From a bacterium (GTDB taxonomy: Bacteria > UBA8248): a stretch of 64,000 nt of DNA. Below, piece after piece: positions 32,695-41,796 of the stretch (position 1 is its first letter; the number at the start of each line of letters is the position of its first letter). Made by a program: the position numbers and the translations under genes. The stretch lies in the NCBI GenBank assembly GCA_965261085.1, contig OZ253442.1:2048001-2112000 (forward strand). Reading direction: 5' to 3'. A model generated the notes under the pieces. It did not search any database. It saw nothing but the letters and a program-made list of their open reading frames with translations, and had not been told where the DNA came from.

Positions 32695-33657
32695 TTAATC
32701 GACGTAAATACAGGTTCCCGCCTCTCCGCGCAGGGCCGGGAGGGCATCTTCCAGGGCGGCGATGCAGATGCGCTTGCCTCCCCCTTCGAGAAAGCGGATC
32801 GCCGCCTCTATCTTGGGTCCCATGCTGCCGGGCGGGAAGTGGCCCTGGGCGTGATAATTCTTGATCTCGGATAGCGAAACTCTATCCAGTTCGCGCTGCT
32901 GCGGCGTGCCGAAGTGGACGGCCACCCTGGGCACGGCCGTCAAGATCATCATGTCCTCTACGCCTAAGACGTTGGCCATGAGGGCGGAGGTCAAATCCTT
33001 GTCGATGACGGCGTCGAGCCCCCGACGCGCGCCGTCGGCCTCGCGCACGACGGGAATGCCCCCGCCGCCGCCCGCGATCACCACGGCGCCACTTTGCGCT
33101 ATGGCCTGGATGAGCGAGATGTCCACGATGTGTTTAGGCCTGGGGGAGGCGACCACGTGCCGCCAGCCGCGGCCCGAGTCCTCGCGCATCGTCCAGCCCA
33201 TCTCCTTCTCATACCGCCTGGCTTCTTCTTCCGTGTAGGTGTAGCCCACGAACTTCGTCGGCGCGTCGAAGGCCGGATCGTCGGGGTCGACCTCGACCTG
33301 GGTCAGGAGGCAAACCACGTGGCGCGGGTCGCCCGCGCGCCTGAGCGCGTTCTCGAACGCCTGCATGAGCAGGTAGGCGATTCCCCCCTGGCTGTGAGCG
33401 ACGCAGATGTCGAGCGTCATCGGCGTCACCTGCTCGCTCGAAATCGCCTGTCGCATGAGGATTTTGCCCACGACGGGGCCGTTTCCGTGCGTGATGATGA
33501 GTTCGTTCTTGAGTTGTAGGAGGGGCAGCAGCGCGCGGCCCGTCGCCGCAGCGATGGCGGCCTGCTCCTCGGCGGTGCCGCGTATCTCGGGCGGATGGGT
33601 CGCGTTGCCGCCCACGGCGACGAGGATGCGTTCGGGAAGTTCGGGCGGGGAGGCCAT
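32695..33657 (-). CDS. arcC: Carbamate kinase
   Basis: VAVGGNA, ITHGNGP, VVASPRP, GGGGGIPV, AVIDKD and GSMGPKIEAA motifs. Confidence 0.93.
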   Translation of the reverse strand: MASPPELPERILVAVGGNATHPPEIRGTAEEQAAIAAATGRALLPLLQLKNELIITHGNGPVVGKILMRQAISSEQVTPMTLDICVAHSQGGIAYLLMQAFENALRRAGDPRHVVCLLTQVEVDPDDPAFDAPTKFVGYTYTEEEARRYEKEMGWTMREDSGRGWRHVVASPRPKHIVDISLIQAIAQSGAVVIAGGGGGIPVVREADGARRGLDAVIDKDLTSALMANVLGVEDMMILTAVPRVAVHFGTPQQRELDRVSLSEIKNYHAQGHFPPGSMGPKIEAAIRFLEGGGKRICIAALEDALPALRGEAGTCIYVD

Positions 33658-33904
33658 CAGCGGTATCTCCCAATAAACCCCGGCCTTCGGAAGCGGCGGC
33701 ATACAAATGCGGGTACAAGTCCCGCGCCGTCCTAAAAGCCGGGAGGAACATCTTACAACAAGCGGGGCGTTGTGGGGTAGAGAAATTTTTTGGGGGCAAG
33801 CACGACTGATGAAGGAGCGATTGCCGATTGAGGAAGGTATCGGTTCGCAACTCCTCGCTCCTTGCTCCTCGCTCGAAAGAATTCCTCCTTCATCAGTCGG
33901 AATT

Positions 33905-34121
33905 CACCCCCCACGCATCAGCCGTCGCACAAACCGCTCGGCTTCTGCTACTCCCCCTCAAGGGGGGAGTGATTTTGGAATTTTCCTTGTTGGGATTTGA
34001 TCCGCTCGGTTGGAAACCCTCATTCTTTAATTGTCATTGACCCGCATTGGGAATCACTCCCCCCTTGAGGGGGAGTCAGTGAGGTAAGGGCGTAAGCCCG
34101 CAAGCGAACTGGTGGGGGGTG
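33905..34121. repeat. Two family A REP half-elements
   Basis: CTCCCCCTCAAGGGGGGAGTG near 33951 and CACTCCCCCCTTGAGGGGGAGTCAGTGAG near 34055. Confidence 0.75.
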
Positions 34122-34266
34122 AATCGCGACCGAGAAGGGAGCGATTGCTCCTTTTCAAGTCAGGCAGCCCCTCCTTCATCAATCGGGTTTGGCCCACACC
34201 CCCCGTTCATCCATACTCAAGCGGCGGATGGCGACGCGTAAGTCGCGCGCGAGTCGAAATAAGGGC

Positions 34267-34296
34267 TTGACAAGAATGGAAAATTTACCGCATTAT
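34267..34296 (+). promoter_or_regulatory. Putative sigma70 promoter at the start of the long lipoprotein leader
   Basis: TTGACA-N18-CATTAT; the -10 element is imperfect. Confidence 0.5.
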
Positions 34297-34475
34297 CCTA
34301 ATGCCGAGTAATTACACGAGAGCAGCCGCCCAAGGGACGCTCGCTGAATGCAGGACGGGCCTCATTCCAGAGGGCCGGAACGGGCGGGAACCACCTTGCG
34401 AAGTATGCACTCGCGTATGGCTTGGCGAAGCCCGGAAGACGACGACCCGGAAGGTTCCGGGCTTCAGTAGCAAAT

Positions 34476-35100
34476 ATCACGAGGCTAGAGGACTCGACTC
34501 ATCATGAAGCATGCCGCAAATCCCTCTCCAGTCTCGTGAATCAGTCAATCAGACGGCCCGGAGTTTTTCGTTCGCGCAAGCGGAGGCGCTCCGGCGCAGG
34601 GAAAGACGGTAAGCCCGGCGGGAGCCGGAGAAGCAGTAAATCACGAGGCTAGGCCAGAGGACTCGACCCGCGATGAAGCACGCCACGAATCCCCCTACCA
34701 GTCTCGTGAATTCACAGGCCATCGGCCCGGAGGCCCGGTTTCGCGCAAGCGGCGGCCCGGCCCCGGGAAAGATTGAAACCCGGGCAACGCCCGGATAAGG
34801 AGAATCGAAATTTCGGCTCGGGCCGGAGCGGTTTCATATCACGAGGCTGGAGGACTCAAACCATGATGATTCCTGAAAAGACTCCCACGCTAGTCTCGTG
34901 GATAAGCCGGCAACCGGCCCGGACTCGGCTGTCCGGGCCGGGGGCCTCGCGCTCCGGCGCCTGCCTGAAACGAATAAAAGCCCGATAACGGATGAAAGTC
35001 GGAAAGACAAACAGAAAGGAGGTTGGTTAAATCCAGACACTTCGGTTTTGTAGTAGCCAAAGTTCTTTAATAATATCACGAGACTAGGAGGACTCAAAAA
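34476..35100 (+). repeat. Tandem array of RBS-mimic hairpin units upstream of lipoprotein 1
   Basis: ATCACGAG(G/A)CT(A/G)...GAGGACTC at 34476, 34640, 34838 and 35075; inverted arms C(C/T)AGTCTCGTG at 34528, 34698 and 34890. Confidence 0.8.
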
Positions 35101-36633
35101 GTGATGAAACTCACCAGTAATAAAATCTTTTCATTCATGCTGGCGGCGGTGTTTGCGCTGACGCTCGCCGGCTGCGGCGGCGGCGGCGGCGGTACGGCTG
35201 CGGTGGATCCGGATCCTCCGGTGGTGACGCCGGAGCCTACCCCGCAGGAGATGTGCGCGGCGGATGGCGGGCGGTTTGAAGACGACGGGTCGTGCACCTC
35301 GGCCGCCGATCTCGAGACAGAACGTATAGCGGCGGAGGAGGCGGCAGCGGACAAAGTAGCAGATGCTACGAAATCGGCCGGTACGAAAGAAGAGGCCATC
35401 GGCGACGAGGCCGAAAGCGACGGTGCTGGCGGTCTCGGCGGCGCTACCGCTACTGCTCTCGACATCGAACACAAAGACGGCGCTGTGTCGATCGCGGTCA
35501 GCAGAGGCACCGGCGATGATAAGGTGGATTTCATGTCGGCCATGGATCTGACCGGCGTGGATGGCAGCACAGGCAGCATGAACTTGCTCGGCCCCAATGA
35601 TGACGACGTGACGGAAATCGCTATCGTCTACACCGACATCGACACGCCCACGCCCACGAAGTTCGGGGATGAGGGCACGGATGTCACGCTGAACGCCAAC
35701 CCTAAAACCACTAACGGCGAAGACTTCCAATCTGTCACTATCATCAATGATGATTTGGCGAAGATAGCGACGGATGGCATTACCGCTACAGGTGCTGGTG
35801 AGATCACTGTCCTGGCGGCAGTCGAGGACAACGACCAAACGGCGGATGTGGATGAGACCGTTGCGGCGTTTGAAACCGATGCCACCTTCGACGGCGCGGA
35901 TGGCAAATTGAAGTGCGCCCGCGACACCAACTGCATGGTCACGCTCGACGCGGACGGCAAGATAACTGATTTCAGCGCCGGATGGGAGTTCACACCCGCC
36001 GATGGCGCTAAGATCGACGTGGAGGACACTGACTACCTCTGGTACGGCGCCTGGCTGATGAAGACGGCGCAAGATGATGGCTCGGATGAATACAACCAGG
36101 TCGAGACCTTCGCGGATTCGACGCTTGTTGAGGCGAACAACGTTGGTAATGTCGATGGCAGCGCGGAATATAAAGGCGGCGCGGCAGGCGTGTACGTGAG
36201 AAACGTGTACGTACCATCAACTACGGGTGAGCAGAAACTCGACTATGCCAACTCCGGCCACTTCACGGCGAACGTCAATTTGACGGCGACCTTCGGTCAG
36301 ATGAACGCAGAGGGTTGTACTGGTGCTAACTGCGGCACCATCGCTCCCAACTTGATCAACACCGTAAGCGGAACCATCGACAACTTCAGCTTGTCCGGCG
36401 GCGAGGATGCGAGCGGCTGGGGCGTGGATGTGGCAGCCGGTATCAACGGCGCTGATCTTGAGAACGGAACGGCCAAGGGCGGTGGAGGTGATGATGGGTC
36501 GATTTCCGGAAACTTCCGCGGTACCGATACCGATGATGACGGTGCCATCGCGCCGAAAGCTCTGGTCGGCGAGTTCAACGCCGAGTTCACGAACGGCTCC
36601 GTGGCCGGTGGTTACGGTGCGAGAAGGCAGTAG
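35101..36633 (+). CDS. Surface lipoprotein 1 with a TbpB/Slam-substrate-like C-terminal beta-barrel
   Basis: Lipobox LAGC followed by poly-Gly; DYLWYGAWL, GSAEYKGGAAGVY, FTANVNLTATFG and terminal GSVAGGYGARRQ; RBS AGGAGG. Confidence 0.8.
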   Translation: MMKLTSNKIFSFMLAAVFALTLAGCGGGGGGTAAVDPDPPVVTPEPTPQEMCAADGGRFEDDGSCTSAADLETERIAAEEAAADKVADATKSAGTKEEAIGDEAESDGAGGLGGATATALDIEHKDGAVSIAVSRGTGDDKVDFMSAMDLTGVDGSTGSMNLLGPNDDDVTEIAIVYTDIDTPTPTKFGDEGTDVTLNANPKTTNGEDFQSVTIINDDLAKIATDGITATGAGEITVLAAVEDNDQTADVDETVAAFETDATFDGADGKLKCARDTNCMVTLDADGKITDFSAGWEFTPADGAKIDVEDTDYLWYGAWLMKTAQDDGSDEYNQVETFADSTLVEANNVGNVDGSAEYKGGAAGVYVRNVYVPSTTGEQKLDYANSGHFTANVNLTATFGQMNAEGCTGANCGTIAPNLINTVSGTIDNFSLSGGEDASGWGVDVAAGINGADLENGTAKGGGGDDGSISGNFRGTDTDDDGAIAPKALVGEFNAEFTNGSVAGGYGARRQ

Positions 36634-37900: not shown

Positions 37901-37966
37901 GCTCGAACGCGAGTGAGGAGAGGGGGTCAATATGTTATTATAACGAGACCAGAGGGGACTCAAAAA

Positions 37967-40126
37967 GTGATGAAACTCACCGGTAATAAAATCTTTTCAT
38001 TCATGTGGGCGGCGGCCTTCGCGCTGACGCTGGCCGGCTGCGGCGGCGGCGGTGGTGGTGGTGCGTCGGACGATACCATGACGACACCGTCAGTACCCGA
38101 CCAGGCGATCATGGCGGCGAAAGATGCGGCGGCGGAAGCTGCGGCAGAGGCTACGGCGGCGCTGAATGCAGCGAAGGAGGCCGTAGACGGCGCCAGTGCA
38201 GACCAGGATTATGACGCCGTGCACTACGCTCTCGCCACTACCGAACTGGGCAAGGCCAAGGATGCCAAGGCGGCTGCGGAGGCCGCACAGGCGGACGCCG
38301 AGATGTTCGCCAAGGCGGTTGCGGATGCCAAGAAGGCTGCGCCTCCGGCTTCTTCGGATCAGGCCGAGTTTGAAGCAAGGCTGGCCCTGGCGGATGCCAA
38401 GACTGCAACGGCGAGCGCCGTAGCGGCGGCGGGTGCGGCCGTGACGGCGACGAAGGCGGCTGCGAGAGCGGCGGCGGCTGCGGTGACCAAGGCGACGGCG
38501 GCAAGGACGAATGCCGCTGGAGCCGAGGCCGCGAAGAAGGCGGCGGATCAAGCGGCGAAGGACGCGGCGGCCGCCAAGAAGACGGCGGATGCGGCGAAGG
38601 CCGCCGTAGCGAAACTCAATGATGACGGCATCGGCACCAGGAAGGGTGCTGCGGACCTCGAGTCGGCTGCGGACACTGCTGCGGGCAATGCAGCCACCGC
38701 CATGAGGAAGGCGAATGAAGCCAAGGCGGCTGCCGAAAAGGCGCGGGACGATGCCATGGCTGCGGCTAACACGCACGTTCTGGGCTTGTTCAAGGCGGCG
38801 AATGGAGACGATATTACATTTGTCGGCAGTGAAGATGATGCGGATATCGCCTCTGCTCTCGGAAGAGCGAAATCCGCTCGGAGAAAGGCCGTTATCGAAG
38901 CAATCGGAACAGCGGCGGACGCCCGACTCGGAGCTGAAGTTGTGATTAAGTGGCCTGCCGACGTGGCAGCCAATCCTGATGCTGCACCACCTACGGAGGC
39001 CGTGCCCGGAGCGCTTTCGATTGAGGTCATCCCCACCGGCGGCTCTGAGATTCCCTTCCGCGCGGAAGCCGTGGAGGATGACCCTTTTACGGATCGAGAC
39101 GAGTCCATGTCGAAGACGGCCACCAAGATCGACGGGTTGCCCGGCTTCAAACACGGGTATGCAGTTTCGGATGGCGGGTCCCATACAATCGTCTTCACCG
39201 ACAAGGAACAGTCGACTCCGGCCGTTCCGGAGAAGACCGTCACCTTGACCTTAGATAACCGGCCCGTGACTGCTTCTCGGGTTGTCCTGCCGGAAGGTGC
39301 AACCACTCTTTCAAACGCCACCTACGATCATGACGGTGACCCGGATACGTTTGGGGTTACAGCCACATTCACGTGTGGTTCAACCAACCCGAGTGATTGC
39401 TCGTTTTCAATTCAAGACGGGAAACTGACATCTCTTGTTGGATATGTAGTTGATGTCTCTGTAACCGATTTTCTACTAGCTGCCGCAAAAGATGGAGTAG
39501 ATGATAATGACTACCTCGCCTTCGGCGTCTGGCTGAGAGTCGACGAGGACGGCAACACGGATGGCGAGCTACCGGCCGTCGGCGTATTCGCAGACGGCGG
39601 AACGCCTTTCGCTACGTCTGCAGCTCTTATCGGTACGGCGACTTACCGGGGCGCTGCTACGGGCGTTTATACCCAGGGAAGCGCGGTTGATTACTTCCAA
39701 GGCAGCGCCACCTTGACGGCCAACTTCGGCACGAAGCCCGAGATGGGTGAAGACGACATGATGGGAGCCATCACCGGCATGATTCACGACATCGTGGCGG
39801 GTGGTGTTTCCATGCGCGATGTTATTCTCCTGAACGCTGATTTTACGAATGCTGATGGTAAGCCCGTGGATAACATTACTGCGGCAGGCGGCTTCACCGG
39901 AATGGCCCGCATGGGCGCGCCCACCGTGACAGGCGACGTGGCCTCGCACCCCTACAACGGCGCATGGGGCGGGCAGTTCTACGGTCCGGCTGCGGATGAA
40001 GACGCGACAGGCGTAGATGCCCTTCCGCCTGCGGTTGCCGGCGCGTTCGGCGTGACCGGCGCCACGGGTGAAGGCGATGCCGCCGTCACCAGAAGTTACG
40101 TGGGCGCGTTCGGCGCGCGCAGGTAG
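37967..40126 (+). CDS. Surface lipoprotein 2 with an Ala-rich stalk and TbpB-like C-terminal barrel
   Basis: Signal peptide nearly identical to lipoprotein 1 (LAGC + poly-Gly); DYLAFGVWL, GTATYRGAATGVY, ATLTANFG and terminal YVGAFGARR. Confidence 0.8.
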   Translation: MMKLTGNKIFSFMWAAAFALTLAGCGGGGGGGASDDTMTTPSVPDQAIMAAKDAAAEAAAEATAALNAAKEAVDGASADQDYDAVHYALATTELGKAKDAKAAAEAAQADAEMFAKAVADAKKAAPPASSDQAEFEARLALADAKTATASAVAAAGAAVTATKAAARAAAAAVTKATAARTNAAGAEAAKKAADQAAKDAAAAKKTADAAKAAVAKLNDDGIGTRKGAADLESAADTAAGNAATAMRKANEAKAAAEKARDDAMAAANTHVLGLFKAANGDDITFVGSEDDADIASALGRAKSARRKAVIEAIGTAADARLGAEVVIKWPADVAANPDAAPPTEAVPGALSIEVIPTGGSEIPFRAEAVEDDPFTDRDESMSKTATKIDGLPGFKHGYAVSDGGSHTIVFTDKEQSTPAVPEKTVTLTLDNRPVTASRVVLPEGATTLSNATYDHDGDPDTFGVTATFTCGSTNPSDCSFSIQDGKLTSLVGYVVDVSVTDFLLAAAKDGVDDNDYLAFGVWLRVDEDGNTDGELPAVGVFADGGTPFATSAALIGTATYRGAATGVYTQGSAVDYFQGSATLTANFGTKPEMGEDDMMGAITGMIHDIVAGGVSMRDVILLNADFTNADGKPVDNITAAGGFTGMARMGAPTVTGDVASHPYNGAWGGQFYGPAADEDATGVDALPPAVAGAFGVTGATGEGDAAVTRSYVGAFGARR

Positions 40127-40274: not shown

Positions 40275-41796
40275 GGGGTTGTTGAAAAACCCCTGACTCT
40301 ATGCTTGGATGTATGGATATTACGCGCCCGAGAAGGGAATATCCGCGATGTTGGGACGCAAGAACCGCGCCCAGATGGATTTGTTCATCACCGGTTCGCT
40401 GGAGAGGTTGATTCCCGAGGATCACATATTGGCCCGCGTGAACCGCGTTCTGGACCTGAGTTGGCTGCGCGAGGAAGTGGCGGATTGTTATTGCGCGGAC
40501 AACGGCCGTCCTGGGATCGACCCCGAAGTGGCGGTTCGGTTGATGTTGGCGGGCCTTCTGCTGGGGTTCGTGCACGACCGTCGGTTGATGCGCGAGGCGC
40601 AGGTGAACATCGCGATCCGGTGGTTCATCGGTTACGGGCTGGAGGATCGGCTGCCGGATCATTCGAGCCTGACGCGGATACGGCAGCGCTGGGGGGAGGC
40701 CCGGTTCCGGGAGATATTCCGCCGCACGGTCCGTGCGTGCCTGGATGCGAAGGTGGCCAAGGCCGAAGTCGTGCACGTGGACGCCTCATTGATCCGCGCG
40801 GACGTGAGTTGGGAGAGTCTGGTGGAGCGTCACGTGGACGAGGTGATAGCGGAGAACCCCGTCGAGGAGGAGGCCGGGAAGAAGGGTGGAGGAGGCCGCC
40901 GTGGCGGGGGTTCCGGGAAGGTGAGCCGGACGGACCCGGACGCGCGGCTGGCGAGAACGGGCGGGGGATTCGAGCCGAGCTACAAGCAGCACGCTGTGGT
41001 GGACGACACGCGCGGGGTGGTGCTCGACGTATCGGTGACGGAGGGTACGGTGAACGAGCGTGAGGTGCTCGAATCGCAGGTGGAAGCGGTATGCGAGGTA
41101 TCGGGGCGCGCGCCCGCGATGGTGACGGCGGACTCTGGCTACGCCTACTCGAAGGTCTACGCGGCCCTGGAGCGCCGGGGTGTGGCCGCGCTCATTCCGG
41201 CGAAGAGGGAACCCTCGCAGAGCCGTGTTCCGTTGCGCCTGTTCCGCTACGACGCGCGGCACGACATCGTGAAGTGTCCGCGCGGCAAGATACTGAGCCC
41301 CCGTCGGCCCGCAAAGGGGGGGCGTTATTATCGTTCGAAGACCCGTGATTGCGCGGGCTGCGCGCTTCGCGAGGATTGCCTGCCGAAGGCGTGGTCGAGC
41401 AAGGTGGTGTTGGTTCCGCATGCGTATCCGGCGCTGTTGCGCGCGCGCCGGCGCCATGCGCGATGGAGGGAGGAGGAGCGGCGGATGTACCGGCGTCATA
41501 TGTGGCGCTCGGAGGGCTACCACGGCGAGGCGAAGACCTGGCACGGGCTTGCGCGCGCGGTGCGGCGCGGTCTTGAGAACATGAAGATACAGTCCTACCT
41601 GACGGCGGCGGCGATCAACCTCAAGCGGCTCTCCGCCGCACTTGCTGCAAGGTTATTCGCCCTCTGGAGGGCCTGGTCGGCCCGGGAAGAGCCTCTGTGC
41701 GTCCATCGCGGCCTCGCAAGCTGCGCGGGCTTCCTGTCCGCCGCCGCGTGACCCTCCATACCGCCCGCTCCCGAAACCGGGTTATTCAACAACCCC
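40275..41796 (+). mobile_element. IS1182 family insertion sequence
   Basis: 18-bp terminal inverted repeats GGGGTTGTTGAA(A/T)AACCC; 5-bp target duplication TTCTC at 40270-74 and 41797-801. Confidence 0.9.
40348..41751 (+). CDS. IS1182 family transposase
   Basis: GRPGIDP, LPDHSSL, VDASLI, TDPDA, ADSGY, C..C.LR..C and INLKRL motifs. Confidence 0.92.
   Translation: MLGRKNRAQMDLFITGSLERLIPEDHILARVNRVLDLSWLREEVADCYCADNGRPGIDPEVAVRLMLAGLLLGFVHDRRLMREAQVNIAIRWFIGYGLEDRLPDHSSLTRIRQRWGEARFREIFRRTVRACLDAKVAKAEVVHVDASLIRADVSWESLVERHVDEVIAENPVEEEAGKKGGGGRRGGGSGKVSRTDPDARLARTGGGFEPSYKQHAVVDDTRGVVLDVSVTEGTVNEREVLESQVEAVCEVSGRAPAMVTADSGYAYSKVYAALERRGVAALIPAKREPSQSRVPLRLFRYDARHDIVKCPRGKILSPRRPAKGGRYYRSKTRDCAGCALREDCLPKAWSSKVVLVPHAYPALLRARRRHARWREEERRMYRRHMWRSEGYHGEAKTWHGLARAVRRGLENMKIQSYLTAAAINLKRLSAALAARLFALWRAWSAREEPLCVHRGLASCAGFLSAAA

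Follow-up and report, generated by a model that had tools for sequence, protein, structure and literature searches.

The closest described relatives of the element reported here are the translational attenuators of ermC, cat and cmlA and the trp attenuator with its 1:2/2:3/3:4 logic, all of them textbook systems. The element is the leader of a surface-lipoprotein gene of an uncultured bacterium (GTDB lineage Bacteria; UBA8248; GenBank assembly GCA_965261085.1), within positions 2,048,001 to 2,112,000 of the forward strand of contig OZ253442.1. This stretch of 64,000 nucleotides (nt) is referred to as the window, and all coordinates are given within it. The leader occupies 34303-35100 (+), about 800 nt, 5′ of the lipoprotein gene (35101-36633, +) and apparently in the same mRNA. 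As in the textbook systems, there are short upstream open reading frames (ORFs) with a Shine-Dalgarno (SD) sequence and mutually exclusive helices, one of which would hide the main SD, and the reading is probably done by a ribosome on the leader ORF. Unlike them, leaders of this kind carry two to four tandem copies of a hairpin unit, each paralogous to the main gene's start site, the decoy SD has the 3′ end of the unit's mini-ORF as its pairing partner, some units have no start codon, the gene controlled encodes a surface lipoprotein, and no terminator-like site was found on the + strand within 34300-35100. The chances are about even that the leader is a cis-acting, attenuator-like register switch on the ribosome-binding site (RBS) of the lipoprotein gene, probably read by ribosomes on the mini-ORFs. 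The hairpin copies of this ribosome site probably decide between an open and a hidden state of the real one.

No description of such an RBS-mimic array was found in the open-access literature. In a search of Rfam (cmscan, E up to 10, 33000-36000), nothing was matched in the 5′ domain or in the three units. The matches to RT-3 (20.2 bits against a gathering threshold of 40.5, 34912-35050, the only one inside the leader) and RT-2 are considered to be due to chance, being far below gathering and having no reverse transcriptase nearby. The architecture, absent from Rfam, is marked by repetition of the gene's own RBS, each copy with a mini-ORF and an anti-SD strand, and by comparative support for two pairing registers.

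Four left arms, of the form ATCACGAG(G/A)CT(A/G)G followed by GAGGACTC, start at 34476, 34640, 34838 and 35075, and right arms, C(C/T)AGTCTCGTG, are present at 34528, 34698 and 34890. TTCGCGCAAGCGG, a CGC-GCAA-GCG hairpin, is common to spacers 1 and 2 (34571 and 34740). These arms, the shared hairpin and a 'weaker unit' near the 5′ end are all found where a first-pass annotation, made from the sequence alone, had placed them. When up to one mismatch is allowed, the arm pattern has 10 matches in the window against 2.58 expected, a number reached by none of 100 shuffles. In the whole 4.27-Mb genome there are 31 exact matches to the degenerate core, seven of them in arm context, which are the seven at this locus; the remaining 24 are unrelated sequence.

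Each module begins with a tetraloop hairpin, continues with an A-rich linker and ends in a 62-nt hairpin, with three modules in this leader and two to four in others. The 62-nt hairpins are homologous to the gene's own start region (repeat family D1) and are therefore its paralogues, in keeping with their earlier description as RBS decoys. Given this homology, it is clear that duplication of the start region gave rise to the units. In each hairpin a left arm with an SD-like GAGG is followed by a C-rich loop, usually containing AUG, and by a right arm with the anti-SD CCUC. The lower stem is CACGAGGC/GUCUCGUG and the upper stem GAGG/CCUC, and between them is an internal loop, CYAG opposite CCAG, with an A x C mismatch that, by eye, is present in nearly all of the internal units. 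A further hairpin within the loop, GGCG/CGCC, was left out of the model, as it occurs only in a subset of units and has 68% of cells paired. Hairpin 1 folds at -21.5 kcal/mol against a shuffle mean of -14.1 (z -2.6; 2 of 200 shuffles as good) and hairpin 3 at -21.2 against -14.7 (z -2.0; 5 of 200).

The units were compared across 14 leaders with 44 units, including two metagenome loci, and are of two types. A-type units are internal and B-type units are always last, the latter being present in 13 of the 14 leaders. Unit 1, an A-type start-site mimic, lies at 34477-34539 (left arm 34477-34491, C-rich loop, right arm 34523-34539) and scores 87.6 bits with R1, a covariance model of the 62-nt hairpin. 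A tetraloop hairpin, GCCCGGC-GGGA-GCCGG (34613-34628), and the linker GAAGCAGTAAAT lead into unit 2 (34641-34709; 70.4 bits with R1), also A-type, whose left arm is lengthened by an insertion of 6 nt and whose ORF is shifted by one of 1 nt. Unit 3 (34839-34901) is B-type, with left arm CACGAGGCTGGAGG and right arm CTAGTCTCGTGG. It is followed by two G+C-rich hairpins at 34907-34946, GCCGG-CAA-CCGGC and CCGGAC-N6-GTCCGG, with invariant stems and a freely variable loop triplet and hexamer (alignment A3). Across the leaders, 15 of the 17 hairpins that precede non-first A-type units are capped by a GNRA loop, for which five different sequences were seen.

It had been proposed that the array functions as RNA, with operators or inversion sites in the DNA as an alternative, and the pairing is consistent with the former. 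A G-U pair is present in the lower stem in 32 of the 36 distinct units, and one-sided stem changes are all compatible with wobble pairing: AU to GU (4+4), GC to GU (1) and GU to GC (3). Because the stem pairing is dependent on wobble, the pairing of the units works on the + strand only. A DNA-level element or neutral relic, whether operators, inversion sites, a repeat like a miniature inverted-repeat transposable element or decaying duplicates of the 5′ end, would account for arms that are inverted repeats, for units derived by duplication of the start region and for the transposase gene 5 kb downstream. It is nevertheless very improbable. Besides the strand-specific pairing, the GNRA loops and covarying helices located between the units are not expected of it, none of the 44 units is in inverted orientation, and the motif is absent from elsewhere in the genome. 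The units are also positional orthologues across species, at near coding-gene conservation between unalignable flanks.

In the genomes searched, the array was found in a single genus. R1 was searched for in 23 genomes of the genus and in 21 genomes from ten other genera of the same order; matches were found in 12 of the 23, with all strong matches at one locus per genome, and in none of the 21 from the sister genera. In a DNA search of 41 genomes, the region was matched only in the source genus, and a scan of metagenomes with a 22-mer from the start site added just two further leaders. An exact 18-mer scan of 185,579 species genomes returned 69 stretches, with approximately 69 expected for equiprobable bases, and at least two matches were present at nine loci only, all nine in records titled 'bacterium' or 'Nitrospinota bacterium'. 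The single 18-mer matches in unrelated phyla are about what chance gives.

Nucleotide identity of the leader is 73-90% to the five genomes in which the match covers most or all of the query. In comparisons with the closest relative, identity is 92-100% in the upstream amino-acid-kinase gene, 14-58% in the next 450 nt of DNA resembling repetitive extragenic palindromes (REP), 77-100% in the leader and 35-72% in the body of the lipoprotein gene. With a more distant species it is 61-80% in the leader and 15-49% in the gene body. The leader is flanked by unalignable DNA upstream and, downstream, by a gene body that is 15-70% identical overall. For 42 of the 44 units the nearest relative is in another genome, which indicates that the units are old positional orthologues and not recently homogenised repeats.

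The array also appears to be transcribed with the gene. A sigma-70-type promoter at 34267-34296 (+), with -35 TTGACA (34267-34272), an 18-nt spacer and -10 CATTAT (34291-34296), scores 10/12 in a consensus scan, would give a transcription start at approximately 34303, and has its TTGACA and -10 region conserved in 14/14 leaders. RNA evidence was taken from aligned metatranscriptome contigs from four runs in four studies. The first matched base is 34303 in run X2 and 34315 in X1 and X15, representing three studies, and one 1861-nt contig from X1 matches 34315-35314 without a break, which takes in the leader with its three units as well as the beginning of the gene. In the bin 34205-34305, contig depth is 0, 0.54, 0 and 0 in the four runs. 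The contig starts agree with the promoter and with the rise in between-species identity at approximately 34204. Gaps in RNA-contig cover over the body of the lipoprotein gene are uninformative. The metatranscriptomes containing this leader, or that of a close relative, are labelled sponge metagenome. The contigs are a hint that the leader array lies inside the lipoprotein mRNA, as the first-pass annotation had supposed. Neither a transcription start near 35070 nor a lack of conservation of the arms in relatives, the two observations that it had named as counting against its proposal, was encountered.

The real translation initiation region (35076-35106, +) contains the left-arm sequence CACGAGACTAG at 35077-35087, the SD AGGAGG at 35086-35091, a GTG at 35101 and an ATG at 35104. 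It is an additional left arm, one that is without a right arm of its own. CACGAGACTAGGAGG at the real start is invariant in 13/13 aligned leaders, and in each of the five genomes searched there is one CACGAG-type start site, plus, in this genome, that of the adjoining paralogue. Two registers of pairing were compared, a local one in which each left arm pairs with its own right arm, and a shifted one in which the penultimate right arm pairs with the last left arm, and the last right arm with the real arm. Counts were made on alignment A3, which covers the last two units and the real site in 13 leaders.

In both registers nearly all cells can pair. In the local register 95.8% of cells are paired, with one compensatory change, GC to AU in leader L007. 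In the shifted register 96.3% are paired, and there is a compensatory double substitution, AU to CG, in L003, L088 and L089 (3/13). As these three are related, this is one evolutionary event, and in each of them the changed left arm mismatches its own right arm. The covariation score of the shifted register was reached by only 1 of 500 shuffles. In the column that discriminates between the registers, 13/13 leaders have the penultimate right arm paired to the next left arm, and only 4/12 have it paired to its own.

Duplex energies point the same way. Right arm 2 had been noted to fit left arm 3 better than left arm 2, which is borne out by -26.8 kcal/mol against -18.6, and in 12 of the 13 leaders the last left arm is a stronger partner for the penultimate right arm than that unit's own left arm. 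Over all units, the right arm prefers the real arm to its own left arm in 35 of 44 and the next left arm in 27 of 44. Right arm 3 is, as previously noted, a perfect 11-nt complement of the real arm here, but this does not extend to a general rule, being so in only 4 of the 13 leaders with a B-type unit. Alternative helices that would sequester the main SD, as in leaders of the ermC and cat type, are found computationally. In the minimum-energy folds the real arm is paired in 14/14 leaders, its partner being an identified upstream right arm in 13, and freeing it costs 7.4-15.2 kcal/mol. When folds are calculated for the growing chain, 9/13 leaders have the local register as their minimum as long as the real site has not been made, and the real arm is captured once made in 10/13.

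Start codons and mini-ORFs are present in most units, a feature absent from the first-pass annotation. An AUG is found in 24 of the 31 A-type units and in 13/13 B-type units, in each case together with an SD-like sequence. As in leaders of the ermC and cat type, the transcript of the main gene would thus carry short ORFs upstream, each served by an SD-like site. In 22 of the 24 AUG-bearing A-type units the ORF is of 11-12 codons and its stop codon is formed by the last bases of the stem, with the peptide pattern M-x-H-A-T-N/K-P-S/P-P-V-S and with PSP or PPP positioned on the anti-SD. The mini-ORF of unit 1, for example, is 34504-34539 and reads MKHAANPSPVS and then stop, and the ORF of unit 2 begins at 34673 and is frameshifted. 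Of the seven A-type units with no AUG, four also have a frame-breaking indel or have lost the stop. The ORFs of B-type units have 33-47 codons and read through the right arm; that of unit 3 runs from an ATG at 34863 to 34988.

It is therefore likely that the mini-ORFs of most units are translated. Most positions of the peptides are variable and synonymous changes are not in excess; the act of translation probably matters more than the peptide. Leader-peptide sensing is unlikely as the explanation. According to this alternative, a ribosome that pauses at the proline-rich end, or terminates there, masks the anti-SD or exposes C-rich loops to Rho, so that expression would follow translation capacity, the status of proline or elongation factor P (EF-P), or another signal. 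The intact ORFs ending at the stem end, the tendency to decay of units that have no AUG, the placing of PSP or PPP on the anti-SD, and loops that are 42% C and 14% G would all suit it, as would the retention of start and stop through changed codons in diverged copies. The variable peptide, the seven A-type units with no AUG, the missing terminator on the + strand of the leader and the RNA contig that continues into the gene do not. A trp-type transcription attenuator is not supported, on the last two grounds, no terminator hairpin with a U tract having been found. Leader-peptide sensing overlaps with the register switch and does not exclude it.

The ORF of unit 3 reads ...TPTLVSWISRQPARTRLSGPG..., and a similar string is present in 13 leaders. 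The W-I-S...G-P string of the B-type ORF bears only a loose resemblance to SecM-type arrest peptides. It was not adopted as a conserved peptide, as the loop triplets vary non-synonymously and follow the hairpin loops and not codons. Another frame is open over 34-78 codons of the B-type region in 6/12 leaders.

Upstream ribosome-binding sites are known to affect a main ORF in other ways. In Sinorhizobium, upstream RBSs and ORFs alter translation of the main ORF by coupling or occlusion, some being occupied by ribosomes and nearly silent (PMC13285730). The effects set out there depend on close-range overlap or steric occlusion, whereas the units here are 170-620 nt upstream and would act by RNA pairing if at all.

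The register switch would work as follows. With n units, n+1 left arms would compete for n right arms. In the local register each decoy would be paired with its own right arm and the real site would be free, which is the ON state. In the shifted register the penultimate right arm and the last decoy left arm would form an uninterrupted 14-bp helix, and the last right arm, or another, would pair with the real site and cover its SD, giving the OFF state. The local register would form first during transcription, being kinetically favoured, and the shifted register would be the thermodynamic ground state. Ribosomes loading on the decoys and translating the mini-ORFs would set the balance between the two, because each passage unwinds or covers a right arm, and the leader would act as a multi-stage translational attenuator. 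A domino switch had been proposed earlier. The part of this that stands is the shifted pairing, which is conserved at the last two junctions and has one compensatory double substitution. A domino starting at the 5′ end is not supported: the 'weaker unit' belongs to a separate domain with covariation of its own, and in several genomes the 3′ strand of this helix, judged by eye, lacks complementarity to left arm 1.

Long-range sequestration of an SD with a kinetic window is familiar from the maturation gene of MS2 and from hok mRNA. Here too the SD would be hidden by a distant upstream complement and translation would be possible only before the ground state forms; unlike in those RNAs, several competing decoy arms would buffer the anti-SD strands. 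A stronger form of the proposal, which is speculative and rather doubtful, is that of a new class of cis-regulator, a 'musical-chairs' RNA, in which tandem self-mimics of the start site and anti-start strands make up a chain of exchangeable helices. The message would relax stepwise from open to closed, as a counter or timer metering the amount of variable surface antigen made per mRNA. Each passage through a mini-ORF would let a right arm move to a better partner, and the number of units would set the delay.

A number of observations weigh against the register switch. Covariation is thin, as the arms are highly conserved; over all 38 units the score was reached by 94 of 500 shuffles, and the alignments supply a single compensatory event per register, in related genomes. 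Two mismatches interrupt the shifted helix of L007, and the real site remains free in 3/13 sub-leader folds. Minimum-energy folds of 800-nt RNAs, with helices spanning 170-700 nt, are unreliable, and the binding advantage of the real arm may just reflect a stronger SD. Seven of the 31 A-type units have no start codon, changes within the ORFs are mostly non-synonymous, and unit 2 of this leader is frameshifted; from the missing AUGs and this frameshift it follows that translation of every unit cannot be required. In addition, RNA ends are not provable from contigs, RNA libraries can contain DNA, and a TAATAT box just 5′ of 35076 may be a second promoter.

The most divergent genome, G015, is also difficult to reconcile with the switch in full. 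It has three genes (L101, L102 and L103) of another lipoprotein family, each with one diverged unit in its 5′ untranslated region (UTR), 25-90 nt 5′ of its own SD. Start and stop are kept in these units through changed codons (GTG...TGA, ATG...TAA). These single-unit leaders have no CACGAG-type arm at the real start, and only the SD/anti-SD part of the proposal could apply to them. The unit of L103 is without SD and start codon, and the gene itself looks frameshifted.

The 5′ part of the leader is a separate domain. It covers 34303-34462 (+; 160 nt) and comprises, from RNAalifold on the 14 leaders, helices P1-P4 and hairpin P5. The closing helix P1 pairs 34303-34308 with 34421-34426, a few bases from the 5′ end, and covaries, being GCCGAG/CTTGGC here and GTCAAG/CTTGAC elsewhere (UA:7/CG:6 and AU:7/GC:3/GU:2 over 14 leaders). 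The inner helix P2, TACACGAGAGCA/TGCACTCGCGTA, is the 'weaker unit' of the first-pass annotation (34313-34324 and 34406-34417); as folded, it pairs approximately 34315-34325 with 34406-34417, with P3 and P4 inside it. Hairpin P5 (34430-34462) has one covarying stem pair (CG:10/AU:2) and a loop, AAGACGACGACCC (34436-34448), which in the alignment is exact in 12 of the 14 leaders. For this loop no partner sequence was found. In the diverged units of G015 the left arm is made up of a related sequence, ACGACGACGG.

Towards the 3′ end of the leader is a perfect SD, GAAAGGAGGT (35014-35023, +), which is complementary to the 3′ tail of the genome's own 16S rRNA, ...CACCTCCTTTCT, and has no start codon behind it. 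AAGGAGG is present 73-81 nt 5′ of the AUG, with no ATG, GTG or TTG 4-14 nt downstream, in 14/14 leaders. A helix at the extreme 5′ end is reminiscent of stabilisers such as the 5′ hairpin of the ompA type. The orphan SD recalls the stabilising SD (STAB-SD) of cry3A, an SD-like element of the 5′ UTR that matches the 3′ end of 16S rRNA, does not initiate translation and blocks RNase J1 (PMC4113751). The leader likewise has a non-initiating SD that matches 16S. STAB-SD is a single site, unlike the array of hairpins with anti-SD arms found here, and RNase J was not found in this genome.

It is possible, although clearly less probable than the switch, that the leader is purely a stabiliser and loader of ribosomes in which no switching takes place. 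The 5′ helix would block decay that depends on the 5′ end, and the decoys and orphan SD would hold 30S subunits, which would shield the leader and raise the local concentration of ribosomes, so that the mRNA of a major surface protein would be both long-lived and highly translated. P1, so close to the 5′ end and covarying, and the 16S-complementary orphan SD in every leader both fit this alternative, and the principle is that of STAB-SD (PMC4113751). RNase E/G is present in the genome, and the leader contig in X1 has a depth of 183, from which expression cannot be ranked. RNase J, the enzyme that STAB-SD counters, was rejected as a target, as TIGR00649 had no match in this one-contig genome, which is 96% complete. 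A stabiliser also leaves unexplained why right-arm complementarity both to the next left arm and to the real one is kept, why there is a compensatory change in the shifted register, and why the A x C mismatch is kept, by eye, in nearly all A-type local hairpins. The 5′ terminal helix and the orphan SD probably stabilise the message as well.

The decoy RNAs CsrB and RsmZ imitate ribosome-binding sites by means of hairpins with repeated SD-like GGA motifs, and SD-like GGA is likewise repeated in the hairpins of this leader. The array, however, is in an mRNA leader and is not a separate small RNA, its GGA is at the junction of stem and loop, and there are just three to five sites in 800 nt. A binding platform or sponge, in which the start-site-like hairpins titrate a trans-acting protein or small RNA that recognises the lipoprotein start, is improbable. 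It would be consistent with repeated units that are each conserved and share an invariant internal loop and loop sequence, with the conserved P5 loop, and with a unit number of two to four, as expected for additive sites. A CsrA sponge was rejected, there being no match to PF02599 in the genome; the control search matched 3 of 14 control genomes (Escherichia coli, Bacillus subtilis and Thermotoga maritima). Nor is there another copy of a right or left arm in the genome to act as a partner RNA, or a candidate RNA-binding gene next to the locus. Action in trans on the gene family was also rejected, as no other arm-like sequence is present in the genome and the start site is unique to the lipoprotein gene and its neighbour, at one per genome in 5/5 genomes besides the adjacent paralogue.

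The lipoprotein gene encodes a protein with the lipobox LAGC, in which the first ~70 residues are conserved and the body is hypervariable. Beyond residue ~70, protein identity is 25-40%, and across species only the first ~70 residues are conserved (BLASTP). No Pfam or NCBIfam family was matched by the lipoprotein, and the family has 281 matches at E ≤0.001, mostly unnamed. The AlphaFold model has a predicted local distance difference test (pLDDT) score of 84.7. In Foldseek it matched the NHBA C-domain with probability 1.0 and a template modelling (TM) score of 0.51-0.61 on the target, TbpB, HpuA, LbpB and fHbp at E 1e-5 to 1e-3, and also hemophilin. With a lipobox and a C-terminal beta-barrel fold, the predicted product is a TbpB/NHBA/HpuA-like (Slam-type) surface lipoprotein, and the modelled fold is that of surface-exposed, antigenically variable lipoproteins.

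Other features of the neighbourhood relate to the gene family and to mobile DNA. A second lipoprotein gene (37913-40126; 737 amino acids) has a nearly identical signal peptide and start region, AACGAGACCAGAGGGGACTCAAAAAGTGATG, and no hairpin array. Many paralogues per genome share only the ~50-nt stretch that encodes the signal peptide, and this stretch could act as a handle for recombination. A DDE transposase gene (DUF772 and DDE_Tnp_1; 40309-41751) follows the two lipoprotein genes on their downstream side. Upstream of the leader, a perfect 25-nt inverted repeat, ACTCCCCCTCAAGGGGGGAGTGATT, which is REP-like, is present at 33950-33974 and 34052-34076. Its summed RNA-contig depth is 2141 in X1, as expected of a multicopy element, and similar copies stand upstream of the leader in L004, L008, L011 and L012.

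The leader is conserved at close to housekeeping level while the protein that follows is hypervariable, which suggests that expression control, and not protein sequence, is the constrained part of the locus. If the register switch is true, it would extend the logic of attenuators to a multi-stage chain, and would be a natural example of strand-exchange circuitry like that of synthetic RNA devices. The locus is likely to be the main expression site of a TbpB-like variable lipoprotein in these uncultured bacteria.

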